Shown here: piece after piece, positions 1 to 64,000 of the stretch | Numbering within the stretch: position 1 is the stretch's first letter | How the letters are laid out: every line of letters starts with the position of its first letter | Assembly: GCA_965655095.1 (NCBI GenBank) | Contig: OZ296656.1 | Location: 32,798,001 to 32,862,000, forward strand | From: Haplodiscus bocki | Taxonomy: Eukaryota | DNA length: 64,000 bases | Direction of reading: 5' to 3' | Position numbers and translations under genes: made by a program | Notes under the pieces: model-generated | What the model was told of the DNA's origin: nothing | What the model saw: only the letters and a program-made list of their open reading frames with translations | Database searches by the model: none

Positions 1-3000
1 TCACAATGGTTTTTTTGGCAATTAATTGCATTCAGTGTTTGTGTGAAAGAAACGTGGGGAACTTTTTTATTCATTGAAAATTAAGTTTGAATACACATTT
101 GGCAAGTTGTGAGGAAAAGATTCCTCTGCATGGCACTATATAAGACTTAAAATCAATAAATTTCTTCACAGATGATTAAAAATAGCTCGATTTTCAAGTT
201 TATTTGTGCAAAAAACCCATCGAAAAATTTTCCCACTCAACGAGAACTTTGTTGGTGATGGCACTGGGTCGCCATATTGAACCTGTCCAATTTTCATCTC
301 ATCTGGAGGCCTATATACGAAAGGAAAACGCCTTCTAGTCAAATGTAGTCGATGTAGCAAAAGTAGATCGAATTTAAAATTTCGTTTGCAAAAAGAACCA
401 TCGAAAAAATGTTGCGCCGCAACCTAACTTTTGTTGGCGATACATTATTCTTGCTGTCAAATTTTTGCCAAACGCTGATGAATCCGTCAAATAGGTCAGA
501 ACATATTGAGTTTTGAAGAAAAGGTTCGACTTGAAAGCGGAACGGAATTTTTTCAAAAATTGCGTGTGAATTTTCTAGAATTTGGGTCTAAAGGGTTTTC
601 GGTCCGCTTCCGCAATGCTCGCCTAAAAGTGCCCACGGCGAGAGAAGGATTTCCCCCATTTTGAAATATGGCGGAAAATGACTGTGAAATTGTAAAAAGC
701 GAGAATTTTTTTGTCCTTTTCTGAAATCAATCTGGCAAATAGATAACGAACATCCAGTGAATTGACTCGTGTATGGATTTTTGGAACATTTCTTGATTTA
801 GTGGAAGAAGTCTCTTGCGTTCCAAAGATTTCATTTCGCGGATGAAGAACAAGTTTCTACGGGACCTGAATTTAATGGTGGCGCCAGAATCTATAACCCA
901 AAGTTGAGTAACCTTCGGTCGGGATTCTAGGTTTTCCAAAAACTCAGAAAGTAGCATTAGTAACCGCTTTAATGTATTCCGTGTATCGGTGCTACCAAAA
1001 CCGTGTATTGCGATCCGAAATGTACCGATATCAGTACAGTGTGTAATTCAAGTTGCGAAGAGTAGTAACATTGTGCTAAATGTGAAAAAGCTTCATGGAA
1101 AAAGTCTCTCTCATCTTTAAAGAAATGATCAAAAGCAAACTTCAACTGGATGCATTTTGGAAGGTACTACTATTTTCAGCAACGATAATTCATCTTACCT
1201 GGTCCTTTTAACCTGAAAAATCGGAGGATCTTTTTTTAGTGGGCGTACCTTAACCGTGTTTCCCATTTAATGTTAATGGAACTTTCAAAAGGTGAAGGTA
1301 GCAACCAAACAAATATGAGTCTTTTGAAGTGATTGGGAGAGACAAAGTACATCGGAATTAGGCGGCTTAAGCATTGCTAATTGGAGGTTTACAAAATCAG
1401 TGAGGTCCTTTAAATTTTACAATTCTCTTCCCTGATCAACTCTTAATTCCGCCATCCTATGCAGCTCTGAGTCTCCTTTGATTTTGAACTGAAGGATTGT
1501 TTTTGAGCTTGAAAATTGTTTTAGGTGTGACAAGTTTCTATCCAAACCTGATGCGTTTTCGGAGATACATTCTTTTTGACGGATAGATGTGTTGTTGTTC
1601 AAGCTTTACATAAGCATTTCCTAAATTAAATTTAGTCGTACCACGACCGAAAAATAAATGCATTCAAGTTAAATTTTTGTGCATCGCAACGAATTTTGAT
1701 GAATTTGTATTTAATCGCATAAATTCAAAAAGGTGCTCATAGCACTTCTTTTTTTAACGGGCTCTGAGCGAAATTTTTTGACCAATGAAATAGTCCAAAC
1801 TTTGGAGCAACGTGTGAGAAATTCCAGAAATTCTGTGCCAACTTATTTGAAGATGATGTGTTTTTTACTTTCCATGGACAATTGCTTTGTTCCCGGATGT
1901 CCTCATTTTCTCTAGGAAGGGTTGTAAAACTTCCAGGTTTTCAACATTATAACATGTTTTTATTTTGAAAAATCCTGTTTTTGAATCAAATATTTTTTAT
2001 TCCAGTGAAACAAAGGGTACGAACAAACTACATTTTACGGTCTACGAAACCATGGAATGAAGAATGTTTTTTGAAGGTTTCTAATTTCCAAGACAAACAT
2101 GAAAAAAAATGAGTGGGTGACGAGCTCGCACTTGAGTTTTATCATGTTAGCTTAACTATTCTGAACTTTAACTAGAAAGTGTTGAAAGAGTTTGTAACAA
2201 ACTTTCCATGGGCTTCAGTTGAACTGGCGTTTATGATCAGAAACAAAAAGTGTTAACAGTAAAGCTCCTCCGACTTTTATCAAAGTTTAGTCAACAATTG
2301 TCTAGTATCCTAGTTACATATAAGTAACCTATATCAGTTCAAAATTTGATCATCAATTTAAGTGTCGGATTGTGCGACACAATTTGCAGTTTGTTGTCGA
2401 CGTTGTAAACCTTTTTTTTTCATGTTGTCATTTGGTTTATGGACAGAAAAAATGTCTGGAATTTCGCTTTCATTACTGTGCGACAAGATCGCTCAACCGG
2501 AGAACGTGCGAAAAGAAAACGTGACTTGGTCAATTTTGTTAATTCTATGCGTGTCAACTTTTAATGCTCTCTTAACCAAGGCTGATACTGCCTGAAATGG
2601 TGCTGAGACGACTATGAATGGATTTAATTAGGAAGTTATCCACCGGGACATAAAAGCTCTTCAATGGTGAATATTGTGTCGTCATCCTCAGAAAAAGATA
2701 ACCACAAGAACATTAGCATACCATGGTCTATGAAGCACCTTCTCGTATATCTTGGATGCTACACCGTTACTTCTTGTTTCCTCGTGGGGGAGGGGGGAAT
2801 TTCGGTCGTGTCGGGTTTGAAACATCTTCACTACTTATTCCGCTGCGCGAAGAAACGGAAATCGAAAAAGGGAAGAAAGCTCGATGGCTAGACGTACATA
2901 GAGTTATCCCCGACCAATATTTTCTTGGGGAAACAAAAAGAAGGCAATGAAATGATGAAATTTGAGAAACGGAAAAAATGAAACGGAGAAGTGATTATTG

Positions 3001-3954
3001 TTCTGCATTATTTAAAATTTAAATGTATGCCTTTCTTGCCTTTATATTCACCGTTTCCCACATAAAAGCTCGTTTCGTGACGCCAGCGGCCGCGGGAAAA
3101 TCTTGCCCGTAGAAATCTCCCAACACCAAAGAACTTACCGTAACATTTGAAATTATTCAACCTTTATTATTGAATTAATTTCATTTTTTTCATGCTAATG
3201 TATCAAAATATTAAATGGTCCAGAATGCTAATTTATTTTTCAGCACTTGTTTTGTGCTGTTAATTGATAACTTGGATTACAAGTTAGGATATACTTTCAT
3301 TAGAAAAATTGTGTTGTGTTTCCGCTACATACATTTCAACACACACTTGGTTTGAAACGTCAGGCCGTGCGAAGTTGTTCTTCCTAATTTGTTTACCTGT
3401 AAAAATTCCAAGCCGATTATGTACAATGTTGAGTGGTGTTAGGTACTAAAGAGAACCGTTTCAATTATTCTTAATTGGCAATGTGCTTCAACCGGGCTTG
3501 TTTATTCGCCAGCTTAAGAATACGTCATTAGGCTTCAGACATCATTCTCCAAAATAAGTTCATTCTGTATGTTCACACAACCACTGTGTAAGTAATTTCT
3601 CCTTGTTTTTTCAAATATTTAATACGGTTTGGCTCTTTTCATAGTGTGGACCGCCATTTAAATGGAGAGCTCATCGGATAGTTTTCTTGATAACTCTTAG
3701 TTTTATCACATGTCACGGTGATCGTTATAGTTGCCATGATACTGGTACTGGTACTCAACAAGCCGAGAATGACCAAGTCGGTGGTACCCGTTAGGCTCAA
3801 AATACTTTTTGTACCCTTCGTGGTGCAAAAAATTGGCTGTTTTTTAGGAAATTGTTAGGTATATGCAACGGTTATCACGAAAAAGTTTTGGACTACTCAC
3901 AGCGGAGGTATCACAAAAATTTCCTGGATTGCCCTTACCGGAAAATTTTGTATA

Positions 3955-49945: not shown

Positions 49946-50262
49946 TTATTTCTATCGACATTTGCAAACATTAAAAAGTAAAATCTTGCCGGAAAAAATT
50001 AAATTTTGCGGCACATGTAAAACAAAAGAAAAACAAGTCTTAAGCCATGGAGGTGCTCCCCGAATTTATTTAATTCACAGAAGCACAAGTGAAAAACAGA
50101 TCTGCTTCTTCAGTTTTGAGGTTCATTCTGTGTTTCCTTTAGAAAAATCACCGAGGAGAGTAGTGTATAAACTAGAATTTGACGCCAAAAGCCGTGGACG
50201 CAACGGAGGGGGAGTGTAAATTAGGTACCCCCTTCATCAATAAAATTTATTAAAAAGTATAC

Positions 50263-50475
50263 TATGTCAATGGGGGTACACAGGAATGAAAATTTAATTT
50301 TATAAAAACATTTTTTCATTTATATGTCAATGGGGGTACACAGGAAATGAAAATTTAATTGTTTAAAAATTTTTTTGAGTAGTCTTATCAAGGGGGGTAC
50401 ACAGGTGTGAAAATTCAATTTTGTAAAAAATATTTTGCGTGGTATTATCAGTGGTAGTACACAGGAAGAAATTCA
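50263..50475 (+). repeat. Subterminal 60-61-bp tandem repeats (4 copies), probably within the Polinton TIR
   Basis: tcaatgggggtacacagg at 50267 and 50327, tcaaggggggtacacagg at ~50388, tcagtggtagtacacagg at ~50448. Inverted core gtaccccc at 50225. Confidence 0.85.
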
Positions 50476-50513: not shown

Positions 50514-50984
50514 TTACATACAATTTTTGATCCATGTCTAACATGCAAAGTGAAAAGGATTATTTCTATCATTACAATGTGTTTGTACATAATCACGATT
50601 TTGAGAAAGTTTTTTAAAAAATTGTCGATGCATTATTGGAATTCGATGTTTTAGATAATAACTTATGTTTATATATCGTTGATGTGATAATATTTTTATT
50701 GTTAGTTTGTTTATTTGATTCAATATAAAACCTCTTTGTCGAGCAATAGTTAATTTTTTGTTTAATTCATACAAACCCAAGCTTTCATCAGAAATTGTCA
50801 TATTAATTATTTCATTATTTGTGATTTTTGTAAGTTTAATATCATATATACAAACATATTAAAATGTATGAAAAAATTTTTTGTGACAATCTCTATAACA
50901 ACCATCTATTTTAGAATCTATTTTAGTAATGAGTGGGTTATCAAATTTATATTCTTTTACAACATATAATTCGTTTTCATTCAT
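50514..50984 (-). pseudogene. Disrupted Polinton accessory ORF (~150 aa), function unknown
   Basis: TAAATG start at 50984 (MNENELYVVKEYKFDNP...) is in frame with the listed 50538-50801 ORF. In-frame TAA at 50859-50861. TAG at 50538-50540 may also be premature (frame continues TWIKNCM to TAA at 50514). Confidence 0.65.
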
Positions 50985-51039
50985 TTATTGGTAGCAAATT
51001 TATTGAAATAAAAAATGTTTTTCAATAAAATTATGATTT

Positions 51040-54000
51040 TCAATTCCATGGTATACTTTCAGTTTCATTTATATAACATCGTTTATCATCGAATATAGAT
51101 AATGTTGATTTTTTTACTTCTTGAAGAACCATTTCATGATTAATTGATCTTATAATATAATTATTACATTCTTTTTGATATTCTTTACCAAATAAACAAT
51201 TGTAATATTCTTCAAATTTAATATGTTTTGATTGAGATTTCGAATTACCTTTTATTTTATTTTTATTTTCATTATTAGTTTTACATTTAAACGAATAAGC
51301 TTTTGATCTCAAACAAACAAATTCATCTATAATAACATTTTTAGGAGTCTCTATTTTGAATTTACCAACAACTTTCTTGTTTTTCTCACTAAATAGTTCA
51401 TGGTTTTGATCTAGATTACTAAAATCGAATATATCTTCTAAATTTTTTAAGTCTTTGATAATGTCTTTTGTTTTCATACTCAAAAACATGCCATCGGTAT
51501 CAATATAATGTAATTGTAATTTTTCTTGTCCAAAATATGGTTGTAATGTATCATAATATGTTTCATACATATGTAATTTACTTAATTCCAAAATACTAAA
51601 ACCAACATATATAGCTTTATCCATAACGATTTCATTTTTTTAATATGTGAAGCTATAATAGTTTTCATATGTTTTTTGTATACCATTAAATGTTAACTTT
51701 GATTGTTGATTAACAATTTTTTTAATATTATCTTTTTTAATTAATTCTAGGTTCAATCGATTCCTAATGTTTTCTAAAAATTTACCAAAAGCAGCATTAA
51801 CAAGCAATTTAAAGAAGTCTTTTTCGAAGTCATTTTTAGCTTTGTTTCGTTTTTGTGTATTAAAACTAATATAACCTTCCAACCATCTGCTTTGTTTAAA
51901 TGATATTATTTCATGAATTTTTTCGACTACCATACCATGTCTTACATAAAATTTTAACATCCTATAATGAATCAGATACTTCTTTTTATCAGTCGAATCA
52001 CATATTAACTTTTTAGATTTTGTATAATTTTCCGGTTTTATAGTATTCATATATTCATTATATTTATTTGGATCTATTTTTTTTTCTGGACAAAACGGAA
52101 AATACTTGGTTTTTTGTTTTATATCATCAGGATATTTTAGATCGACTTCAACAAAATAACCAATGTCTGAATCATCTGGTGTATTTAAAATTTCATCTAA
52201 CCAATTCCAATACTTATCAGGACTACCATGCCACATTTCAATTTCATCATAAGGTAAAACTTGACTCATTGAAAAACCATATAAATTAGTAGCATCTATA
52301 TATGTTATCTTATTATTTTCATCTGATTTAACATATCTATCACCCATAACTGAGCTTATGCCGCCACGTATATTATTCTCTATTAACAAAATCAGATCTT
52401 TATCTTGTAGTGCTTGTAATTTAATATTAGTATATTTCAAAGCACATTGATAAGTATAACCTGGTAAACTCAAACAATATAAAGGATTAATTTTATATTC
52501 TTTGGTAGATACTTTTACAAATTTTTCAAAAACATCAGCTAATAAAATAACATCACTTTTACATTATAATTCAGTTAGTTCTCTTCCATCTTTGATATTA
52601 AATAGTTTAATAATTTCTTTAGTTCTTTCTATTTCTTCATCATCAGGATAATCATTTTTTATTTTACTGAAGAAGTCCTCTTTTTTTAAATCATTAACAG
52701 AATTTTTATCATCATTGATACTATTGAAATATTGATATGGATATGCTAGTTTTTTATTTAAATATTGCCATTTGTCAGGAAATTCTTTTTTCAAAATTTT
52801 AAAATCATCCTCATCCAAATTTTTAACTAATTTATCCAAACTCTCTGATAAGAAGCGATAACTATCAATAAATCTAATACAACCATATTTAACTGTAATA
52901 TATTCTTCGTTGGTTTTAGGAATAATTTTAAATTTTACTTTATCTTTTTTTAAATCAACCAACTTTTTAAAAAACATATGACAATCGTAATTACTAAAAT
53001 TATGGAATGCAAATGGTATAAAATTACTATCTTTTTGGTTTACGTTTATATTACAAATATTATGAGCTGGACCTCTGTATTTTCCTGTTAAATGACAGTG
53101 ATCACGAACTTTATCTGATAATATTTCTTTTTCACAAAATCGACAGATGTTATTATTTTTAAAATCTTCATCTTCTTTTGTCATAATGATATCTTTTTTA
53201 GTGTTTTTAAAATAGAAAGCCATTTTATTTTCTAATTTTATAACTTCTTTAACAAACCAATCAACATTATCATAACCTAACGGAGATTCGTATTAATCAC
53301 TCTTTAAAACGTCTTCCAATTCAGATATTATATAATAACCTTTAAGTACAGGATTTTGTTTGTATATGTTGGTTGTTTTGTTTCCTATCTTAGTATTATC
53401 TTTTTCATTATCAGCTTCGAAATCGGCAATAATCCTAAAATATAATGGATTTTTATGAAAGTGTTTTTTCCAATAAAGATGAGATTCATTTGATGTTCTA
53501 ATAGTACATATATTATCATCTCCACATTTTTCTTTATGATTTATTAAAGCATTTTCACACGTATAAGAATTCAAACAACGTCTACATACAAAACTTTTGT
53601 GATGATCTCCTAAAAATACATGTAATTTTTTAATGAGAGCATAATGATTTTTTTTAGATTAATAAGTCAATAACATTATCTGATTCGTTTTTACTGATTT
53701 CGATGGGTATCAAATTATGTTTCCATTTATCTCCATCTTGATAGAAATTTAATTCGTATATATTTACAGATAAATTGTTTAATTCATTAAATTTGTGAAC
53801 ATCACCACATTTAAAACCGTTTGTAAAATCGAAATTTTGAAAGTTTAATTCATTAAAATATTGTATATAATTGTTTACTCTTGATGGATGAGTATTTTCA
53901 CAAGGATGAAGACTAGCTAAAATTGACCAAATAAAACAATATTTATCATTATTTTGAACATTTAAGATAGCAGATGTTCTCAATGGAATTTTAACATAAG

Positions 54001-54703
54001 AAGTACCGTTTAATTCTTCAGTTTTGTAGAATGATATTTTCATTGAATTAATTTTATCAAATATCCAACCAGAATCCTTTGTTTCTTGTATCTGAATTTG
54101 ATGTTCTAATTGAGATCTAACGTCAATATTATCAATATCAGATTCAGTAAAATTATGATTAATTTTTAAGTTTATATATAATTCAATTTCATTATCTCGT
54201 TGATCTTCTTCATTAATTTTATAAAAGCTCGCTGAAAATAATGTGTGATATTTAAATTTATATTGATTTATTAATCGAGAATAAATAACAGATAATTCTT
54301 TTATGATTTTATTAATATATCTATACTCAACGCCAACGTCTGGATATTTACATGTAATAACCAAAATAGAATTTGCATGACTAATATTATGACTTTCTAA
54401 ATTAATTTTGAAACCATTTTTTAAATTTTCATCAATAAAATAATATGGGTTAATCATTATTTTAGCTAATTCTTTATCATCCAATTTAATTTTTTCTCTT
54501 GCTAATTGTTTCAATGTTTTAGGGTTATATACTTTTTATATCTTTTTCTTAATAGGTGTTTTTTCTTTCTTAAAAAACCATTCTGGTATAATCATTTCAT
54601 TTCGGTTTATATTTTCTAAATGTTTTTTGCTTCTCAAATGCTTTTGCATAGATGCTCTGTGTACATCAGCATTACAAATTTCACATGTGCGGCTGTTTTC
54701 CAT
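51040..54703 (-). pseudogene. polB: Protein-primed family B DNA polymerase (pPolB), ~1220 codons, disrupted at five sites
   Basis: Exo motifs IIADFEA, FHNFSNYD and L*CKSDV; polymerase motifs YIDATNLYG, KLLVNAAFGK and YIDTDG; KG motif. ATG at 54703. In-frame TAA at 54536, 53293, 52564 and 51640, plus a stop with frameshift in an A-run at ~53654. Joins listed ORFs 53654-54514, 53293-53574, 52564-53223, 51640-52473 and 51040-51624. Confidence 0.95.
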
Positions 54704-55069: not shown

Positions 55070-55085
55070 GTACAATATTTTAATC

Positions 55086-55153
55086 AAAATTGTACTCAAA
55101 TTGTACTCATATACTTGTACTTATATTTAGTATACATACTTGTATAAGAGTAT
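55086..55153 (+). promoter_or_regulatory. Intergenic module upstream of the integrase; inverted copies at 61406-61532
   Basis: aaaattgtactcaaattgtactcatatac...ttagtatacatacttgtataagagtat matches the reverse complement of 61464-61532 and 61406-61459. All copies have the same orientation relative to the downstream gene. Confidence 0.6.
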
Positions 55154-55180
55154 GATGTTTTGTATGTTTACAAAATATAA

Positions 55181-56035
55181 ATGACTCAGAAAAACATTAA
55201 AATATTTATAAACGAAATTTATTCCAAACCACCAAAACGAAACTATGCTACAAATAAAACAGACGTTTATTATATCGATGACATTTGGAGTTTAGACATT
55301 TTAGACTTAAAAGACTATGGTCCTGAAAACAATAGAGGTTACAGATATGTTCTTGTCGTCATAGACAATTTTAGTAAATTTGGTTGGACAATACCCCTAA
55401 AAAATAAAAATGCTCAAACAATAAAAGACTCTTTCGAAAATATTTTGATAAGCTCAAAAAGAAAACCAAATTTAATCGAAACAGACCATGGCAAAGAATT
55501 CTACAACAATTTTTTTCAAGATTTCTTAAATAAAAACAATATCACACTTTGTTCTAGAAACAGTTCATATGGTGCTGTTTTTGCAGAAAGATTTAATCGT
55601 ACTATCAGAGACCTTCTTAAAAAGATCGTTTTCGAACGAGGTGATGCAAATTGGACTGATGTATTACCTACAATAACAAAACAATATAATAATCGAATAC
55701 ATTCATCAACAAAACTGTCTCCAGAAGATGCTTCTTTAAAAAAGAATGAAGGATTCGTTTACAAAAACTTATTAGATAAACGTGATAAACTCAAACCAAA
55801 GTTTCAAATAAACGATCTTGTTAGAGTTGCTGACTTAAAGAAAACGTTTTCAAAAAGATACAACAAATTGGTCTTATAAATTATATAAAATTACAGAAAT
55901 AATCAATGATTCAATACCAAGTTATAAAATAAAAATTTACCAGAAAGATACAACGAGTCGTTATTAAAAAAGATTAATTTAACAATGAAAGAAAATAATA
56001 GTGTTATGAAAAAATTAAGACTTGATATTGTATAA
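55181..56035 (+). pseudogene. int: Retroviral-type (rve, DDE) integrase with two frameshifts in the C-terminal part; catalytic core open (55181-55879)
   Basis: WSLD, VIDNFSKFGW, IETDHGKEF, AERFNRTI and YNNRIHSS. After FSK the expected DTTNWSYKLYKITE continues in another frame (~55855). LPERYNE...KKLRLDIV* returns to the original frame after ~55930 and ends at TAA 56033-56035. Confidence 0.93.
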
Positions 56036-56110
56036 TTTAAACACCCACTCATATAATTGTATGTATACCTTAATATAATTACTCGTATATTTGTATGTGT
56101 TATGAATACT

Positions 56111-57361
56111 TTAACTTAAATCAAACATTCGTTGTCCGTCGCTGCTTATAGAAATTAGTTTGTTTGTTAAAACCAAAGCATAACCGTATATGCTAGCAGG
56201 GACTACTCCATCAAATTTAAATTCAACTTTTATTGGCTGAGAACTTTCAAAATTTTTTTGATATCGGATATCGAAAGCGTATATATTATAACCAATATTA
56301 TCACCATTTTTAGACGATCTAAAATCATCATCAGATATGTATGGTTGAAGAAGGTTATCTTTTGTTAGAGCTTTAAAAGCTTCTTTAATCTGTCCATAAC
56401 CTTGTGAATAATCATCATCGTTATAATTTAATAGAATTCCACTATCAGGGTACTTTTCTGTTCCGATAATGCATTGAGCTGATGTTACTAGAGGTCTATA
56501 AAAAGTGTCGTTGTTCAAATTTTGATCGTTTTGTCTATCATTTTGTTGAAAAGCTACAAATATCCATATAGGTACGTTAATACCTTCCTGAGTACCTAAT
56601 TCGAAAGTCCAAAGATTTTGAGTATTTACCTCTTTCATGAAAACAGATCTTTCAGGATAATGAAGTAGTGTTGGAGAGTTTTTCTTAATTTGAGTCATTA
56701 GTTTGTTATATTCTTCAAGATTTGGACTATAATGAGGCACATACCAATCAAGACTATTAATTTTAACTCTACCATTAGCAACTGCATTATCTTTATTCAA
56801 AACGGCGTTGTCTGTATTTCTTGTCAAGGTTAATTTGTATCCGAGACCGTAAGTCCCTTTTTCTTGGTGTTCGGCAAATCCAAAAATATCTTTTAGATGA
56901 ATTCTAATATGATATTTGCCTTTGATAGTTTTATTATTAGTTAATTCATTTTTTCTTCTTCCTCTACTACGATCAAAGCAAATAGATAAGTCGTCACTGT
57001 CTTTACTCGATGTTAAAAGTTTGTACATTAAACTAACAATATGAGCATGACTGATCTCTTCTAGGTGTTTGCCTGATGATGTTGTTAGCTTGTAATTAGA
57101 GAATGAAGCTATTGGACCCAAATTAACTAATCTAATATCATTAGCATCTACGTATCTGTTACTATTATCAGCTCGTAATACGTCAAAATTTATTTCAATA
57201 TAACTATTTAACAAAGAAATAACAGAATCTTTTCTTGGTATATTAATATATATTTGAGAATTAGCAGTGTTTATTGTAGATATTTCAGCTGGACTGTATC
57301 GTATATAATCACATTTCAGAATCCTTCTATCGACTTCATAATTTTCACTGAGTTTAAACAT
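56111..57361 (-). CDS. Major capsid protein (double jelly roll, Polinton PY type), 416 aa, uninterrupted
   Basis: Size, beta-strand-rich pattern, N-terminal YxPxx...IxIxI..D...L.SYIEI, VPHY linker, PIWIFVAFQ, KYP and IYAFDIRYQ...IKVEFKF resemble Polinton MCPs. Genomic context fits. Confidence 0.85.
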   Translation of the reverse strand: MFKLSENYEVDRRILKCDYIRYSPAEISTINTANSQIYINIPRKDSVISLLNSYIEINFDVLRADNSNRYVDANDIRLVNLGPIASFSNYKLTTSSGKHLEEISHAHIVSLMYKLLTSSKDSDDLSICFDRSRGRRKNELTNNKTIKGKYHIRIHLKDIFGFAEHQEKGTYGLGYKLTLTRNTDNAVLNKDNAVANGRVKINSLDWYVPHYSPNLEEYNKLMTQIKKNSPTLLHYPERSVFMKEVNTQNLWTFELGTQEGINVPIWIFVAFQQNDRQNDQNLNNDTFYRPLVTSAQCIIGTEKYPDSGILLNYNDDDYSQGYGQIKEAFKALTKDNLLQPYISDDDFRSSKNGDNIGYNIYAFDIRYQKNFESSQPIKVEFKFDGVVPASIYGYALVLTNKLISISSDGQRMFDLS

Positions 57362-57498
57362 TTATATATAAAAAAAATGTATACATACAATTATTTGAGT
57401 AATTATAGTTGACTATATGTACAATTATATTCTCATTTTATGTTACATACTATTATACTTGTACATATACTTATGTATGCTTACAATTATATGAGTAC

Positions 57499-58333
57499 TT
57501 ATAATAGATTACATTTAATTAAAATTTGCTTATGTTGTTTCTTAGATATACATTTATATTCTAATAATTTATCAATTATAGCAACAATTTCTTCATCAAT
57601 TAAATAAGATTTATTACCAGCATGTTTTTCTTGTAATAATAATTTCAACCTATCACACAATTCATTTGAATCAGATGATAGAAATATTGTTTTTGAAACA
57701 CCTGAAGCCATGATCAAGTAATCTAATCAATGAATTGTGTCTGACACTAGGTCTACCAGTACTTTTGGTATCATAGTTCATTTCTTTTGCAAATTCATAA
57801 ATTATTTTTCGATCTTGTTGATTAGGATGATCTACATTGAATTTATAATTTGTTATTACTTTCAAAAGATCTCCTTCTAGTTTAAAAGTTTTTTTACTAT
57901 CTCGAAAAGTTATCATATTACTAAATAAAGTAACTGGTATAGTTCCATGAATTAAAAAATCATTCAATTTAGTTGAATTAGGATCTTTTCTTAGTCTAAA
58001 TTGACTTTTGTTATCTTTTTTAAATACTTCAACAAGAGAAGTAGTTAGATAAGGGGCTATAATACCTTTATCATTCAATAATTCTAAAATTTTTTCGTTT
58101 AAATTCTCAATTGCTTTGTTGTTATTAATAGAATGTTCTGTAATAGTTTTTGTTATTTTTTCAGAAGTATTTTTCATTTCATCAGTCATTGTTTTAAAAA
58201 ATTTTTTTATATCTTCATGATAATTCTGTTCACCAAGCTTGTTTTGTAATCTAACTTCTTGTACTTGTTTTTGTAACGAGATTGCCTCATTTAATTTCTC
58301 TAAATCTTCTATATTTTTAATTGAATACAACAT
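57499..58333 (-). pseudogene. Conserved Polinton protein (~280 aa, coiled-coil N-terminus, C-terminal NELxxRLxLL..AGN motif) split by one frameshift
   Basis: ORF 57671-58333 and ORF 57499-57717 overlap at ~57712 (RLLD / IMASGV). SDSNELCDRLKLLLQEKHAGN resembles the DPNELxxRLxLL..AGN motif seen in many animal Polintons. Only the upstream ORF has a TAAATG start. Confidence 0.7.
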
Positions 58334-58414
58334 TTATTTTATTAAAAAAGTTATTCTTGTATACTTACACATATTCAAATATGAATATCATATTTACAAT
58401 TTGATAAGATTAAA

Positions 58415-58508: not shown

Positions 58509-59240
58509 ATGAGTTCTATAATTAAAAAACTTAATACAAATTGTGTGTCGTGTAATGTTCTGTTAAACGATAAAAATTTGGTTAAAAATAGAAAAAAATG
58601 TAATAAATGTCTCAATAATATTAGGAATAAAAATAAAAAACCAATTATTAAACACGTATATGAAAACAATACTATGATAAAAACCGATAGAACGCTTATA
58701 ATCGGTAGATCAGGTTGTGGAAAGACATTTCTGATGTTATCACTATTAAAAGATAAGAATCCAGATGATGTTTATATAATCTGTAAAACAGACAATCAAT
58801 ATCCTTCAAATTTTCACAATCAATCTAGAGAGATATTACCCTTAGAAGATTATGGTAATAAAACTATTGTCTTTGATGATATGTTAGGATCGAAAGAAGC
58901 AAAAGATATTGATGCTTTTTTTACTCGTGGCCGTCATCAACACCTCAATATTTTTTATATCTCTCAATCATGGTATGAATTACCTAAAAACACTATTCGA
59001 AATAATTGTAGTAGAATTATGTTGTTTCCACAAACATTAAAGGATATAACTATGATTTGCAACGATATTTCAGGTTTACATATGAATTTTTCAGAATGGC
59101 GTGTTTTTTGTCGAGATGCATGGAAGAAAAAATATAATTATATTCAAATAGATAAAGATAAAGATCTAGATGATATGTATAGCATTAAAAACGTATCAGG
59201 TTTAGAGATTATAGCTATTCCAGAGACAGATGCTTTTTGA
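58509..59240 (+). CDS. A32/FtsK-HerA family DNA packaging ATPase with an N-terminal C4 zinc finger, 243 aa
   Basis: Walker A GRSGCGKT, Walker B IVFDD, TRGRH arginine motif, ISQ, IRNN. N-terminal CVSC-x15-CNKC. Confidence 0.93.
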   Translation: MSSIIKKLNTNCVSCNVLLNDKNLVKNRKKCNKCLNNIRNKNKKPIIKHVYENNTMIKTDRTLIIGRSGCGKTFLMLSLLKDKNPDDVYIICKTDNQYPSNFHNQSREILPLEDYGNKTIVFDDMLGSKEAKDIDAFFTRGRHQHLNIFYISQSWYELPKNTIRNNCSRIMLFPQTLKDITMICNDISGLHMNFSEWRVFCRDAWKKKYNYIQIDKDKDLDDMYSIKNVSGLEIIAIPETDAF

Positions 59241-59313: not shown

Positions 59314-59847
59314 TTATAAAAAAGATTCATTTTTGTTTTCATTAACATATTTAGTAAAAATATTACATAGACTTTCATATTCGGTTTTATCAATTACATT
59401 ATCTTGTAATGATTTTCTGTATAATTTATCAAAAGATTTAATAGTATTTTGATCTCTTTCATATTGTTTTTTATATTTATTGTATTTGTTTATGATTAAT
59501 TTGTGTAATATTTTGTTACCTAATGATAGGCCGCAAGCAATTCCAGCTGATATAGGCAAAACAATTAAACCAATACCAGTAACCGATAGAGTTATCGAAG
59601 TTGATGTTGCTCCGATGATAACGACGCTGTCTACCGATTCTAAAACTGCATTCAAAGTTTTATAATTTTTGTATTTCTTTTTTGATTTATGGTTTTTGTC
59701 TTTGAAATATGTTATCATTTCTTTAATGTTATTGATGTGGTTATTAAAACTGTTAACATCGTTTATTTTCTTTTCTAATCGTTTTTCTAAATCAATATTT
59801 TCTAATAATGGTGCACTGGGATACAATCTTTCGGTTTTTGTTTCCAT
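59314..59847 (-). CDS. 177-aa putative membrane-active protein (hydrophobic hairpin between basic coiled coils; similar in plan to adintovirus GasderminX-type proteins)
   Basis: Uncharged Gly-rich stretch VVIIGATSTSITLSVTGIGLIVLPISAGIACGLSLG, flanking KKKYK helices, C-terminal LQDNVIDKTEY, N-terminal LYPSAPL. Confidence 0.7.
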   Translation of the reverse strand: METKTERLYPSAPLLENIDLEKRLEKKINDVNSFNNHINNIKEMITYFKDKNHKSKKKYKNYKTLNAVLESVDSVVIIGATSTSITLSVTGIGLIVLPISAGIACGLSLGNKILHKLIINKYNKYKKQYERDQNTIKSFDKLYRKSLQDNVIDKTEYESLCNIFTKYVNENKNESFL

Positions 59848-59861
59848 TTATATAGTATAAT

Positions 59862-60260
59862 TTATACAAATTTACCGAGGTATAAACCTTTACCTGTATT
59901 GTAAAACGTTATCAATTCTGGTAACGTTGATAAAGCCTGTTTGGAATTTCGAGAAGCAGCTGCTGTAGCTATTTTTGCTGTTAAATCTAGAGCTCGTCCA
60001 GGATTACTTAATACGTTTCTTGCCATCTTTTTTGACACATTTAATCCTTTTTTACTAAGATTTTTGAAAAAGTCGCCAAGGCCTTCCGCTTTTATTGTAT
60101 CATCAGAAACTGTCATAGATTTTTTGCGGTTACAAATTGAACAAACGCCAATTAATACTTTGCTGCCTTTACTTGTTATACTACCATAAATTTTTACTGT
60201 TGCAGATCGATGCCTGCCTCCAACACAGTAACTGTCTGTTTTAAATTTATTGAATGTCAT
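59862..60260 (-). CDS. 132-aa basic virion core/entry protein candidate (Zn-ribbon-like N-terminus, amphipathic helix, GKGLYL tail)
   Basis: YCVGGRH...CSIC; IKAE-GLGDFFKNLSKKGLNVSKKMARNVL amphipathic pattern; TGKGLYL. TAAATG start. Confidence 0.7.
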   Translation of the reverse strand: MTFNKFKTDSYCVGGRHRSATVKIYGSITSKGSKVLIGVCSICNRKKSMTVSDDTIKAEGLGDFFKNLSKKGLNVSKKMARNVLSNPGRALDLTAKIATAAASRNSKQALSTLPELITFYNTGKGLYLGKFV

Positions 60261-60295: not shown

Positions 60296-61390
60296 TTAAA
60301 TTTTAATCATCTGTAAAGTAAAAGTCAACGTTTCGTGATTAAAATCAACTTCTTCATTATTTTCATCTTCTAGATAAAATGTTATAGTATTCAAAACAGA
60401 TTTGTTTATTTTTTTATAATGAATCGTTTCAGGTTCTGAAAATACTTTGTAACCAGGTTTTTTATCTAATACAAAACTATATAATATTGATTGTCTCAAA
60501 CCATTGACTACTGAACCATCGATAACATCACATTTCAAGTGTATTTTATTAGTGTTACTTAGGTTTACAATTTTTTGACTAATATACTTATTATAGTGTT
60601 TGTAATCCCAACCTGGGGTAAAACCTAAGATAGTACTAAAGAACGATTTTTCATCAAATCTTACGGCTAAAATTCCAGATTGTACAACCAATTTAGTTTT
60701 CATGTTAATATCATCATATTCAATAACAATAACATTGCAATCACCTGGACAATCTGATTGGAGAATGCTAAAAAGAGCTTCGGAAATATCTTTAAAACTA
60801 TAAATGCCTGGATCTAATTCATAAGTAATAAAACTTGAATTGTATTCATCTAAAACCAATTTAATATCATCTTCAACCAGATCAACTTCTGTTCTGAGAA
60901 AACTTTCGAAATCTTGAAACACAGAACTTGTATATCTCGCTAAAATATCCATATATCCATCATCATTCATTCTTTTTGTTACTTGTTCATTATATTCTTT
61001 AATAATAATCGGAGCTATTATTTCATCTTGTAAATCTTCCACAGTAATATCTTCAAGATCCAAGTCTCTTTCAATCTCATCTCTGACTTTTGTATATGAA
61101 ATACCACCAGCTTTTTCATCAGGAAATTTGTAAAGTTCGAATTTGTTATTTTCTTCGGTTATATTATAAATAGAATTGTATACTACTAAGTCTACTAAAC
61201 CGATCATCCAATCTCCTTTGATTTGAATTGGTGGTTTGAAATGGAATGATTCTCTTGATTTATTCATTTTGAATTCCAAGGTCTCATCTGCTTTTCTGTG
61301 AGTCTGTTCAATTAGTGTTTCACAATTTTTAGTTATTGAAAGTAATAAATCTTCTGTTTGAGTTTTAGGTCTGATCATATTTAAATTCAT
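60296..61390 (-). CDS. Minor capsid protein (penton, Polinton PX type), paralog 1, 364 aa
   Basis: FKPPI..W.IGL, NITEENNKF, PGIY, TILGF, KIHLKCD.IDGS.VNG, ILYSF, PGYK, YKKINK and VDFNHET.TFTL: single jelly-roll penton pattern. Confidence 0.85.
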   Translation of the reverse strand: MNLNMIRPKTQTEDLLLSITKNCETLIEQTHRKADETLEFKMNKSRESFHFKPPIQIKGDWMIGLVDLVVYNSIYNITEENNKFELYKFPDEKAGGISYTKVRDEIERDLDLEDITVEDLQDEIIAPIIIKEYNEQVTKRMNDDGYMDILARYTSSVFQDFESFLRTEVDLVEDDIKLVLDEYNSSFITYELDPGIYSFKDISEALFSILQSDCPGDCNVIVIEYDDINMKTKLVVQSGILAVRFDEKSFFSTILGFTPGWDYKHYNKYISQKIVNLSNTNKIHLKCDVIDGSVVNGLRQSILYSFVLDKKPGYKVFSEPETIHYKKINKSVLNTITFYLEDENNEEVDFNHETLTFTLQMIKI

Positions 61391-61405
61391 TCAAAACTTA
61401 CAAAA

Positions 61406-61532
61406 ATACTCTTATACAAGTTTGTATACTAAATATAATTACACGTATAAGAGTACAATAAAGATACTCTTATACAAGTATGTATACTAATTATAAACAC
61501 ACGTATATGTGTACAATTTTGAGTACAATTTT
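61406..61532 (-). promoter_or_regulatory. Two tandem copies of the intergenic module between the pentons
   Basis: atactcttatacaagt(t/a)tgtatactaa at 61406 and 61464. Reverse complement of 55086-55153. Confidence 0.6.
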
Positions 61533-62602
61533 TATATTTTAATTAACTGACAGGTGAATGATATTGTTTCATTATGAAAATCTACTGGTTTGTAATCATC
61601 ATCTTCAAAATAAAATGTTGAATGAGACAAAACAGATTTATTTATTTTTTTAAAAAGTTTAATTCTGGGTTCATTATATATCCTATGACCAGGAGGTGAA
61701 CTTAAAGCAAAACTATATAAAATAGGTTCTCTTATACCGTTAACGATAGATCCTTGTATACAACCACATTTCAAATGAATTTTATCGATTCCTGTAATGT
61801 TAATTGGCTTATCGCTTTTGTATGATCCTGCTATAATTTGATAATGACTATCTATATCATCTAGTGGATAAGATCGTGATTGTGTAAAACCTAAAATTGT
61901 ATAAAAGAAAGATCTTTCAGTAAATATTAAAGTTTGATTAATTTTTAAATTTGATTTTAATCTAATATCCTCTATTGTAATGTTTACTTTTACATTATTG
62001 GGTAAAATATGTTTTAAAGTATTATTTAAATCGACAACTTCATAAATACCTGGATTCAAACTATAACCTGTTCTTTTTGTAGGAATATATTTCAAGTCTA
62101 ATATATCCATAATTTCATAATAAGATAATCTCATTCTGTAAACTAAATCTTCAAGATCATTGTATTTAGCATTTTTTAATTCTTGAACTATCTCATATTT
62201 TTGATTATCAAAATCTGATAATTTATATTCATTGTCACCTATTTTTATTTTATTTCCTCTTTTTTTAACTTCTTCTACATGTAATTCAAGAGATTTGAGC
62301 TCTAATATTTTATTTAGATCGTTAATAGTTTTTTCATCAGATTTGTTTTGGTAATGACCTCGTATAATAATTGAAAAACTATTGTTTTCGTTGGTGATGT
62401 TAAAGACTGAATTTGTACATTCGAATGAACTCACAGCTAGTAACCATTTACCTTCTTCAACTAAATTTATTGGAGGATTGAATGAAAACGTTTGCATTTG
62501 CTTATTCATTTTAAATTCCAAAGTCTCTTGTGGTTTCGTTTTTGTTTGTTCAATCAGAGTATCAGTATGTTTTTTAATCAAAAGTAACAGTTCATTATTC
62601 AT
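61532..62602 (-). CDS. Minor capsid protein (penton), paralog 2, 356 aa
   Basis: Colinear with paralog 1: TLIEQT..ETLEFKMNK, FNPPI, NITNENNSF, PGIY, TILGFT, KIHLKC, ILYSF, KKINKSVL, VDF.NET, Q.IKI end. Confidence 0.85.
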   Translation of the reverse strand: MNNELLLLIKKHTDTLIEQTKTKPQETLEFKMNKQMQTFSFNPPINLVEEGKWLLAVSSFECTNSVFNITNENNSFSIIIRGHYQNKSDEKTINDLNKILELKSLELHVEEVKKRGNKIKIGDNEYKLSDFDNQKYEIVQELKNAKYNDLEDLVYRMRLSYYEIMDILDLKYIPTKRTGYSLNPGIYEVVDLNNTLKHILPNNVKVNITIEDIRLKSNLKINQTLIFTERSFFYTILGFTQSRSYPLDDIDSHYQIIAGSYKSDKPINITGIDKIHLKCGCIQGSIVNGIREPILYSFALSSPPGHRIYNEPRIKLFKKINKSVLSHSTFYFEDDDYKPVDFHNETISFTCQLIKI

Positions 62603-62925
62603 TTATAATATCAACATTGTATAATTACACGTATTCAAATATAAATATTCTTATACTTGTATGAATAAGTTAACTTATTTGTAATCGCGAGTGATCAACT
62701 TAGTATAAGTACACCTATTCATATAGGAATAATAAAGTAATTATAAGTACACATATAATTGTAAGTATATCCCTAGTATAAGTACAAATATATTTGTATC
62801 AAGTACTTTTAAATAATATTAATTATTGTTTATTTACACTTATTGAAATATGAATAACCCTATAATTATAAATATACTTGTATGAATAATTTAACAAACT
62901 TTATATATTCTTATACATGTACATA

Positions 62926-63149: not shown

Positions 63150-63575
63150 TCATATCATTTGATAGTATAAATTTAAAACAGCAATTTTAAAATCAATACC
63201 TAACACTTTTGTCAAATATATTATATATAAACAATAAAAAGCACAATAAGAGTCTTGCTTACTTGTTAGACCTTGTATTTTGTATTCTGAATATAAACAA
63301 TATCCATTTCGTTTTATGATAAATTTAGATAGTTTCTTTGGAGGTGTAATCCCATATGAATCAAAATAGCTTCCGTGATTATATAAAACCCAATGGGTTC
63401 CTTTTGATGGATGTAAATTTACAATGCCAATATCAGATTCAAAAGGTTCGTCTCTTAAATAGATCCCTATATCATTCAAAGACAAAGATGAAAGGATCTG
63501 TTGAATTTTTATATTTGATGTTGCTTTGTTTTTCAATTTGTGTTTTTTAATAAAATCATTGAACATCAGTATCAT
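63150..63575 (-). CDS. Adenain/Ulp1-like (clan CE) maturation cysteine protease, 141 aa
   Basis: IVNL..GTHWV (His), YFDSYG (Asp), IQ (oxyanion Gln) and SYCAFYC (Cys) in the canonical order. Confidence 0.92.
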   Translation of the reverse strand: MILMFNDFIKKHKLKNKATSNIKIQQILSSLSLNDIGIYLRDEPFESDIGIVNLHPSKGTHWVLYNHGSYFDSYGITPPKKLSKFIIKRNGYCLYSEYKIQGLTSKQDSYCAFYCLYIIYLTKVLGIDFKIAVLNLYYQMI

Positions 63576-63866
63576 TTAAACACTCATATAATTGTATGTA
63601 TAAATATACATATAATTGTAAGTATTACTCATATAATTATATGTATCAATACCCATATAAGTGTATGTATAACTGTATGTATCCGTGTGTTTTAAATGTA
63701 ATTATTTATTTTCTTCTGATAAATCAAGAAACTTATTCATATAATTGTAAGTATACCCCAGTATAAGTACTCGTGTAATTATATTATCACAATTGTGAAA
63801 CATATGTATAAATACTCGTATAAATGTAAGTATACCTTAGTATAAGTACTCCTATAATTGTAAGTA

Positions 63867-64000
63867 TCATGAATCTCGTCTTGTTGTAAACAAAAAATCT
63901 TCTAAAACTTTATCAGCATTAGCATAATTGTCGAATAAACCTTTGTCATATAATATTTGTATCGTCGTTTTCACAGCTCTTTGAATTAAAATATCTTCTA
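63867..64000 (-). CDS. C-terminal end of a further Polinton ORF starting beyond the window
   Basis: Open frame EDILIQRAVKTTIQILYDKGLFDNYANADKVLEDFLFTTRRDS* ending at TGA 63867-63869. Confidence 0.6.
   Translation of the reverse strand, partial: EDILIQRAVKTTIQILYDKGLFDNYANADKVLEDFLFTTRRDS

Follow-up and report, generated by a model that had tools for sequence, protein, structure and literature searches.

The window (the whole 64,000-nt stretch of DNA that was analysed) enters an adintovirus-like Polinton/Maverick, a viral-type DNA element lodged in an animal genome, near 50 kb, where the GC content drops from about 37% to 25%. The left terminal inverted repeat (50159..50435, plus strand; 90.5% identity by blastn over 211 nt to L017, on the right arm of the element) adjoins the 6-bp target duplication GAGGAG at 50153-50158, and the right end was found 5,889 bp beyond the end of the window. 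The element is approximately 19.7 kb long, and its AG...CT ends, terminal inverted repeats and 6-bp target duplication are all present. Next to the left repeat lies a putative protein-primed DNA polymerase gene (50538..54457, minus strand), which is broken into at least five pieces in this copy; the split ORFs carry what we take to be pPolB motifs, and the pPolB Pfam match is absent from the four pieces scanned. It is followed by a retroviral-type integrase (55181..55879, plus strand; Pfam rve, E = 9e-12, above cut-off), a double jelly-roll major capsid protein (56111..57361, minus strand; Pfam PF21738, E = 2e-10, above cut-off) and an A32-like packaging ATPase (58509..59240, plus strand; Pfam Pox_A32, E = 2e-4, below cut-off, with blastp matches to Polinton ATPases). 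The ATPase is the convergent downstream neighbour of the gene studied here, a minus-strand ORF of 177 amino acids at 59314..59847. Upstream of the latter is a 132-aa ORF (59862..60260, minus strand), which has no family match in Pfam or NCBIfam and which, from its sequence features, we take to be a likely pX/protein VI-like virion accessory protein. Further on are two tandem paralogous ORFs of 364 and 356 aa (60296..62602, minus strand), which both match the ATPase-adjacent gene of two viral loci (L115 and L124) and are, from their position, likely minor capsid (penton) proteins. Both are longer than the single gene of about 260 aa found in L115, L124 and L129. An ORF at 63150..63575 (minus strand), with homologues in six Polinton-like loci, is presumably an adenain-type maturation protease.

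The 177-aa gene sits between the ATPase on one side and the pX-like and two penton-like genes on the other, and its homologues in L115, L124 and L129 are likewise found among ATPase, penton-like and capsid genes. Its description as a Polinton protein in the first-pass annotation is borne out by this location, inside an element with terminal inverted repeats, integrase, double jelly-roll capsid protein and A32-like ATPase. The intergenic gaps of the element also contain AT-rich repeats of 28-60 nt, in both orientations and mostly upstream of genes, with a core like ACTCATATAATTGTA.GTATA (window positions 55074-55156, 56034-56098, 57376-57517, 58355-58392, 61402-61532, 62615-62921 and 63575-63873), which are possibly a shared viral promoter element. 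Just inside the right terminal inverted repeat (L017:5209-5517) there is a long imperfect A-rich/T-rich inverted repeat, with arms of about 120 nt, a 67-nt spacer and 7-nt units. The right arm (L017:1212-2953 and 2874-3904) carries three plus-strand ORFs of 182-191 aa, then tandem arrays with units of 28 and 51 nt and an acidic ORF of repetitive sequence.

Translation of the 177-aa ORF confirms the sequence LYPSAPL at residues 8-14 (59806..59826, minus strand), in which LYP overlaps P(S/T)AP, both being motifs of the late-domain type, within a tail (residues 1-15) that is predicted to be disordered. The tail is followed by a long helix, a hydrophobic hairpin and C-terminal helices. A Lys-rich basic patch (residues 50-64; 59656..59700, minus strand) lies N-terminal to the hairpin, with a net charge of +5 in the 30 residues preceding the uncharged stretch. 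This Gly/Ser/Thr/Ala-rich stretch (residues 74-111; 59515..59628, minus strand) has a Kyte-Doolittle peak of 2.06 at residues 89-107, is flanked by net charges of +5/+6 on either side, and is predicted either to cross the membrane as two helices or to form a re-entrant hairpin. The hydrophobic hairpin noted at first is supported by both the AlphaFold models and the hydrophobicity profile, while its length needs correction from 36 aa, the uncharged stretch measuring 38 aa. Towards the C-terminus, a conserved L-x-D-N-x-I-x3-E-Y segment (residues 147-157; 59377..59409, minus strand) precedes the last helix, and L147, D149 and E156 are near-invariant in an alignment of 77 sequences.

The AlphaFold model of the 177-aa protein, based on the same 77-sequence alignment (pLDDT 63, pTM 0.39), has long helices turning at residues 91-92, next to the near-invariant G91. 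That of a 43%-identical homologue, P0167, has a pLDDT of 72 and a pTM of 0.55. Both models share the disordered residues 1-15, a long helical hairpin with its turn around residue 91 and, at the end, a short helix; a disordered tail followed by a two-helix hairpin is the predicted architecture. The tail has a pLDDT below 50 in both, which places P(S/T)AP in a predicted disordered, accessible segment. By chance, given the residue composition of 14 element ORFs (3294 aa), P(S/T)AP would be expected 0.0066 times and was observed once, in the 177-aa ORF, a post hoc figure next to which selection and conservation are the real evidence. At the other end, the near and mid families terminate in or near (E/N/H)-(S/N)-F-(L/F/Y) (window positions 59317-59328 here), even after a variable low-complexity insert, and F176 is near-invariant, so that it may belong to a second linear motif. 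The C-terminal ESFL was considered as a PDZ ligand and rejected, since conservation is broad for the Phe alone and many homologues run beyond it.

No Pfam or NCBIfam family matches the protein above cut-off. The SLATT_1 family gave weak matches, in Pfam for 2-4 of 18 proteins (best E = 0.005, 17.3 bits against a cut-off of 26.3) and in NCBIfam with E = 0.002 (17.9 bits against a cut-off of 41), and a scan of 28 members of the far clade did not place SLATT among the families listed (25 of 56). The Pfam RTX N-terminal match (E = 0.05) and the NCBIfam GarD and xenorhabdolysin A matches (E = 0.001-0.003, well short of the cut-off) were put down to composition, the hairpin being rich in small residues. 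For both models the best fold matches are uncharacterised invertebrate iridovirus proteins (A0A5B8RH66 and A0A068QKD3, E = 1e-4 to 7e-4), followed by giant-virus proteins annotated as SLATT (E = 0.02-0.05), although helical hairpins match loosely. In BFVD the best matches are A0A5B8RH66, A0A068QKD3, S6DF61 and Q06VM1, grouped as uncharacterised proteins of invertebrate iridoviruses, although Q06VM1 is an entry without a name. With the profile matches below curated cut-offs, these predictions weakly suggest a SLATT-like hairpin. The pore-forming hairpin toxin fold that the first-pass annotation had suggested looking for did not appear: Foldseek against the PDB gave no match at E <= 0.001, and a wide VIA search returned generic coiled coils only (best Z 10).

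A first look at the source genome (G000) returned 17,463 candidates for the 177-aa gene, of which 150 were scored, with identities of 89-100%. In a genome of 1.5 Gb, so many candidates for a single Polinton gene suggest an extreme expansion, which possibly accounts for several percent of the genome if most of the candidates are full elements. The sequencing runs listed are four DNA-type entries from one study, with none of RNA among them. Since copies must not be chosen on the motif, selection was studied on copies retrieved from this genome with residues 45-177 only; the set consists of 90 copies from the first 92 matches, two with the same score as a neighbour being skipped as probable duplicates, and includes the window's own copy. 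The motif is conserved within an otherwise variable N-terminus, with 85/90 copies coding for LYP(S/T)AP (LYPSAP in 64, LYPTAP in 21, other sequences in 5) while the flanking residues 2-7 drift, and this also holds for clades that are 19-45% identical. None of the 90 copies has an amino-acid change at L8, Y9, P10 or P13, where synonymous differences occur in 39, 28, 44 and 20 copies, respectively, and A12 shows three single changes. At residue 11, 66 copies code for Ser (TCA, TCG or AGT) and 21 for Thr (ACA, ACG or ACT), and the remaining three have a stop, a Trp and a gap. A P(S/T)AP constraint would lead one to expect just this, namely Ser drawn from both of its codon families and no shared alternative other than Thr. 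The pairwise pN/pS for residues 8, 9, 10, 12 and 13 is 0.017 (bootstrap 0-0.04), compared with 0.57 (0.50-0.67) for residues 2-7, 0.29 (0.20-0.39) for residues 14-22 and 0.137 overall; with residue 11 counted, the six-codon motif window has a pN/pS of 0.144, which is unexceptional (rank 107 of 171). Columns free of amino-acid change make up 49/176, windows with at least four of them 12/171, and none of the 15 columns flanking the motif (2-7 and 14-22) is invariant, so that the motif forms an island in the disordered tail; genomic copies, like the clusters described below, are related, and such counts do not represent independent events.

A first search for homologues gave 3682 matches, the best 120 of which are near copies, and a search of representatives gave 1353. 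A five-sequence profile reached a sister family about 40% identical, whose typical tail reads LYPSL followed by PTAP and/or PSAP; this family was not found in G000 (best identity about 40%). Scanning viral contigs for polymerase motifs yielded 13 loci, two of which contain a homologue: that of L115 carries IYPDL...PTAP (hhalign probability 92%, E = 5e-7, 26% identity), and that of L124 (L124:10131-10664) has no tail. Scans of the viral contigs with P0001 and A2 found no relative, and with A5 only the two contigs already found. Querying with L115 and L124 gave 557 matches, and the best 120 of these include three named from Dreissena polymorpha; Mollusca is the commonest known phylum for this far clade in the Atlas. 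The far clade is 19-25% identical, has molluscs among its named hosts, and shows [LI]YPxL followed by [PA](S/T)AP with variable spacing.

Tails were counted in 359 of 362 sequences, three being dropped for want of an anchor. In the far set (n = 119, the best 120 of 557 matches possibly being motif-enriched because the query held the motif), YPxL is present in 89 tails, YPx[LIMV] in 107, P(S/T)AP in 77 and [PA][ST]AP in 106. The mid set (n = 120) has YPxL in 90 and P(S/T)AP in 44, and the near set (n = 120) has LYPx3L in 113, P(S/T)AP in 118 and YPxL in none; PPxY was sought in the tails and found in 0/359. Among 12 core clusters (75% core identity), [LIV]YP occurs in 11, YPxL in 9 and P(S/T)AP in 5, compared with means of 0.24, 0.15 and 0.01, respectively, after 2000 shuffles, while the first 60 aa of 138 other ORFs (some of them spurious) contain YPxL once and P(S/T)AP never. 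Homologues that were found without the tail, by core or polymerase patterns, carry both motifs in 3/4 cases (L048, L115 and L129; not L124), L130 being cut before the N-terminus and outside this count. L129 (CBDDTI010000304.1) and L130 are Polinton genes in contigs of bacterial MAGs, which is probably due to binning contamination from an animal host.

The 102 distinct far-clade tails have L/I before the Tyr in 90/94 and L at +3 in 83, with a free +2 position, and the second motif has P (59) or A (26) and then S (47) or T (41) before AP, beginning 3-22 residues past the Tyr. The free position after YP, the Leu that comes next and the variable spacing indicate two separate linear motifs, of which the LYPSAP of this element is, judged by these sequences, a fused or compressed overlap. 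In the 77-sequence alignment (19-92% identity), Y9 is kept in 73 sequences and P10 in 72, both among 14 near-invariant columns. A core-only tree of 62 rows (midpoint-rooted, with a long-branch warning) is divided by a very long branch, and both motifs occur on either side of it. Within the far set, P0389, P0414, P0434, P0478 and L124 form a supported clade without the tail, and both motifs are absent from P0443 and P0477. The tail-less clade shows that the core can persist without the motifs, and lineages with a single motif show that neither is universal.

The variation that is allowed in the motif follows the TSG101 and ALIX consensus motifs, and LYPSAPL very probably represents a real ESCRT-binding motif, as the first-pass annotation had proposed. 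Its two halves do not stand equally. An ALIX-type [LI]YPxL is found throughout the family, while the LYPx3L form named at first fits only this lineage (1/12 clusters). The overlap with PSAP removes the Leu at +3, which makes ALIX binding by this protein less sure than TSG101 binding. The genome contains a UEV domain match (E = 1e-30) as well as ALIX-type V-domain matches. The host UEV exon aligns to residues 50-144 of human TSG101 (E = 7e-26), and at the positions that we take to line the PTAP groove it is identical at T58, Y68, N69, V89, T92, M95, P139 and V141 and substituted at three (Y63F, F142Y, S143A). A second UEV-domain match in this genome (L113, G000:C1:62186947-62187237) has an internal TAG stop. 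Prediction of a complex between residues 1-40 and the host UEV exon scored 0.01, which speaks neither for nor against binding, the exon being of 96 aa, lacking the first 49 or so UEV residues and modelled with no alignment. The ASAP/ATAP variant seen in part of the family is also a TSG101 ligand. It was counted as weaker than P(S/T)AP because the ASAP of Tacaribe virus does not drive self-budding, according to the accessible text of PMC3509680.

Both motif types are known from retroviral Gag proteins (EIAV p9 YPDL, HIV-1 p6 PTAP with YPXnL, MLV PSAP/LYPAL), where YPXnL and P(S/T)AP late domains often occur together and are interchangeable, as summarised in the available part of PMC8402826. The IYPDL followed by PTAP of L115 is similarly Gag-like, and the one-motif lineages resemble the interchangeable late domains described in the same excerpt (PMC8402826). 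In contrast to Gag, the Polinton motifs stand on a predicted integral membrane hairpin protein and not on a capsid-forming polyprotein, their order is YPxL then P(S/T)AP, and PPxY does not accompany them. The first-pass annotation had considered a late domain unexpected for a presumed non-enveloped virus, a view that precedents contradict. Hepatitis A virus, which is non-enveloped, recruits ALIX through the YPXnL of VP2 and leaves the cell non-lytically as a quasi-enveloped virion, although there the motifs lie in a capsid protein, without a membrane adaptor (PMC8402826, available part). The other precedent, and the closest layout, is NS3/NS3A of bluetongue virus (an orbivirus), likewise a small protein of a non-enveloped virus, which drives TSG101-dependent non-lytic exit and, in the accessible text of PMC7409164, has an N-terminal PSAP, a predicted coiled coil, polybasic motifs before two TM helices and a capsid-binding C-terminus. 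It differs in belonging to an RNA virus, in its second motif (PPRY for NEDD4, and not the YPxL of the Polinton family) and in its loop, which is glycosylated and 21 aa long, while a tight turn is predicted for the Polinton protein. With the P0001 model, the 50 best Foldseek matches include six orbivirus NS3 entries, all of them weak (best E = 0.07, TM 0.26-0.47 by query), and the 50 best for the other model (P0167) include none. The parallel with NS3 is one of layout, best taken as analogy rather than homology.

In L115, L124 and L129, a pX-ended gene and an amphipathic gene, presumably cupiennin-like, look like separate neighbours of the 177-aa-protein homologue. Compared by description with GasderminX, Cupiennin and Adintoc of Beta adintovirus, which form the same kind of capsid module with a membrane-active theme (the accessible part of Starrett et al. 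2021, PMC8502044), the 177-aa gene is for this reason probably neither GasderminX nor Cupiennin. Cupiennin was rejected also in that the separate amphipathic gene fits its description better, and the 177-aa gene may be a numbered Adintoc gene. The modelled helix-2TM-helix layout also loosely resembles that of the two-TM SLATT proteins of Polinton-like and giant viruses and of the iridovirus proteins. The SLATT profile nevertheless stays below cut-off, and the accessible text of the SLATT papers does not mention a late domain (PMC12220804, PMC9503650).

Taking together the motif, the selection on it, its deep conservation, the capsid-module position and the host genes for both partner domains, we consider, on balance and from sequence, that the protein is probably an ESCRT-recruiting membrane adaptor for the non-lytic exit of virions. 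As a product of the capsid module it would be anchored in a membrane by its hairpin, with the conserved N-terminal LYP(xL)/P(S/T)AP pair and both termini presumably facing the cytosol, since no signal peptide is evident and the flanks are basic. The P(S/T)AP would bind the UEV domain of TSG101 and, probably also, the LYP(x)L the V domain of ALIX, while the C-terminal helices could bridge to the capsid, by analogy with bluetongue NS3. Scission of the bud by ESCRT-III would follow, either at the plasma membrane or into multivesicular bodies, and capsids would leave the cell non-lytically inside a host-derived membrane.

Alternatively, the ESCRT-binding motifs could act on the protein itself, a SLATT-like viroporin or pore; they would route it to exosomes or multivesicular bodies or control its turnover, and would have no part in capsid budding. 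All of the motif-conservation data fit this equally well, the weak SLATT similarity in Pfam and NCBIfam and the fold matches to SLATT-annotated giant-virus proteins speak for it, and SLATT proteins have been proposed as pores (PMC12220804 and PMC9503650, as far as their accessible text goes). For such proteins in related viruses, the available portions of the published accounts lean towards pores that serve entry, lysis or abortive infection (PMC12220804, 10.64898/2026.10.13.758929). The tandem arrangement of YPxL and P(S/T)AP is, however, that of budding proteins (PMC8402826, in part). The SLATT scores remain under curated cut-offs and the family is absent from those shown for far-clade members, and the gene stays in the capsid module, which makes self-sorting rather unlikely. 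Less probable still is recruitment of ESCRT to the nuclear envelope, with capsids assembled in the nucleus budding across the inner membrane of the envelope. In its favour are the presumed nuclear assembly of Polintons, as in adenoviruses, the use of ALIX in the nuclear egress of herpesviruses and the position of LYP as the best-conserved part of the motif, and the basic patch might direct the protein to the nuclear envelope. Against it, P(S/T)AP usually acts at endosomes or the plasma membrane.

We consider it improbable that the tail is a decoy which sequesters TSG101 and ALIX, blocking membrane repair or receptor sorting and promoting hairpin-mediated lysis or entry. It would accord with the membrane-active proteins that abound in Beta adintovirus capsid modules (accessible part of Starrett et al., PMC8502044) and with the lytic egress or abortive infection that the available part of a 2026 preprint proposes for the pore-like proteins of these viruses (10.64898/2026.10.13.758929); both motifs, in a fixed order beside a membrane anchor, are not obviously needed for a decoy. 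A partner other than ESCRT, for instance an adaptor recognising a YxxPhi sorting signal or an SH3-type protein binding a proline ligand, is similarly hard to support. YPxL and YPxM do conform to YxxPhi (Met occupies +3 in 5 far and 5 mid tails), but this signal needs neither the near-invariant Pro at +1 nor the L/I at -1, the present lineage has Ala at +3, and a separate [PA][ST]AP block with free exchange of S and T is left unexplained. That the motif is a chance match without function, as the first-pass annotation had cautioned, is scarcely credible in view of the codon-level selection and the conservation across two deeply split clades, even if short motifs do arise by chance and one clade is without it.

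Whether animal Polintons produce virions at all, and how these would leave the cell, is a long-standing open question, and for this family the searched literature, in which most subscription papers were outside reach, describes no exit route. The same literature gave no prior report of late domains in Polintons, and the accessible text of Starrett et al. (2021, PMC8502044) mentions neither late domain, ESCRT, PTAP nor envelope. What is new here is late domains in Polintons, such domains being already known in non-enveloped viruses. A budding-type motif pair that purifying selection holds both in a massively amplified family and between clades of about 20% identity is evidence, at the level of sequence, for an extracellular phase within a membrane, and the role offered for viral SLATT-like proteins differs from the pore models in print. 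More tentatively, and as a conjecture that we hold to be plausible rather than probable, a dedicated ESCRT adaptor of the NS3 kind may be encoded by a broad lineage of animal Polintons, having arisen from a SLATT-type hairpin that iridoviruses perhaps share, and quasi-enveloped virions may carry these elements from cell to cell (possibly from the soma into the germline, or from one species to another). If this is true, the selection that still acts on the motif in thousands of copies within one genome would mean that the expansion has proceeded via extracellular particles and not only by intracellular transposition. With two named host proteins and a 15-residue peptide, the question of exit becomes directly testable without a live element. 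The tail-less clade provides a natural contrast, since its members could be helper-dependent elements or use a different exit.
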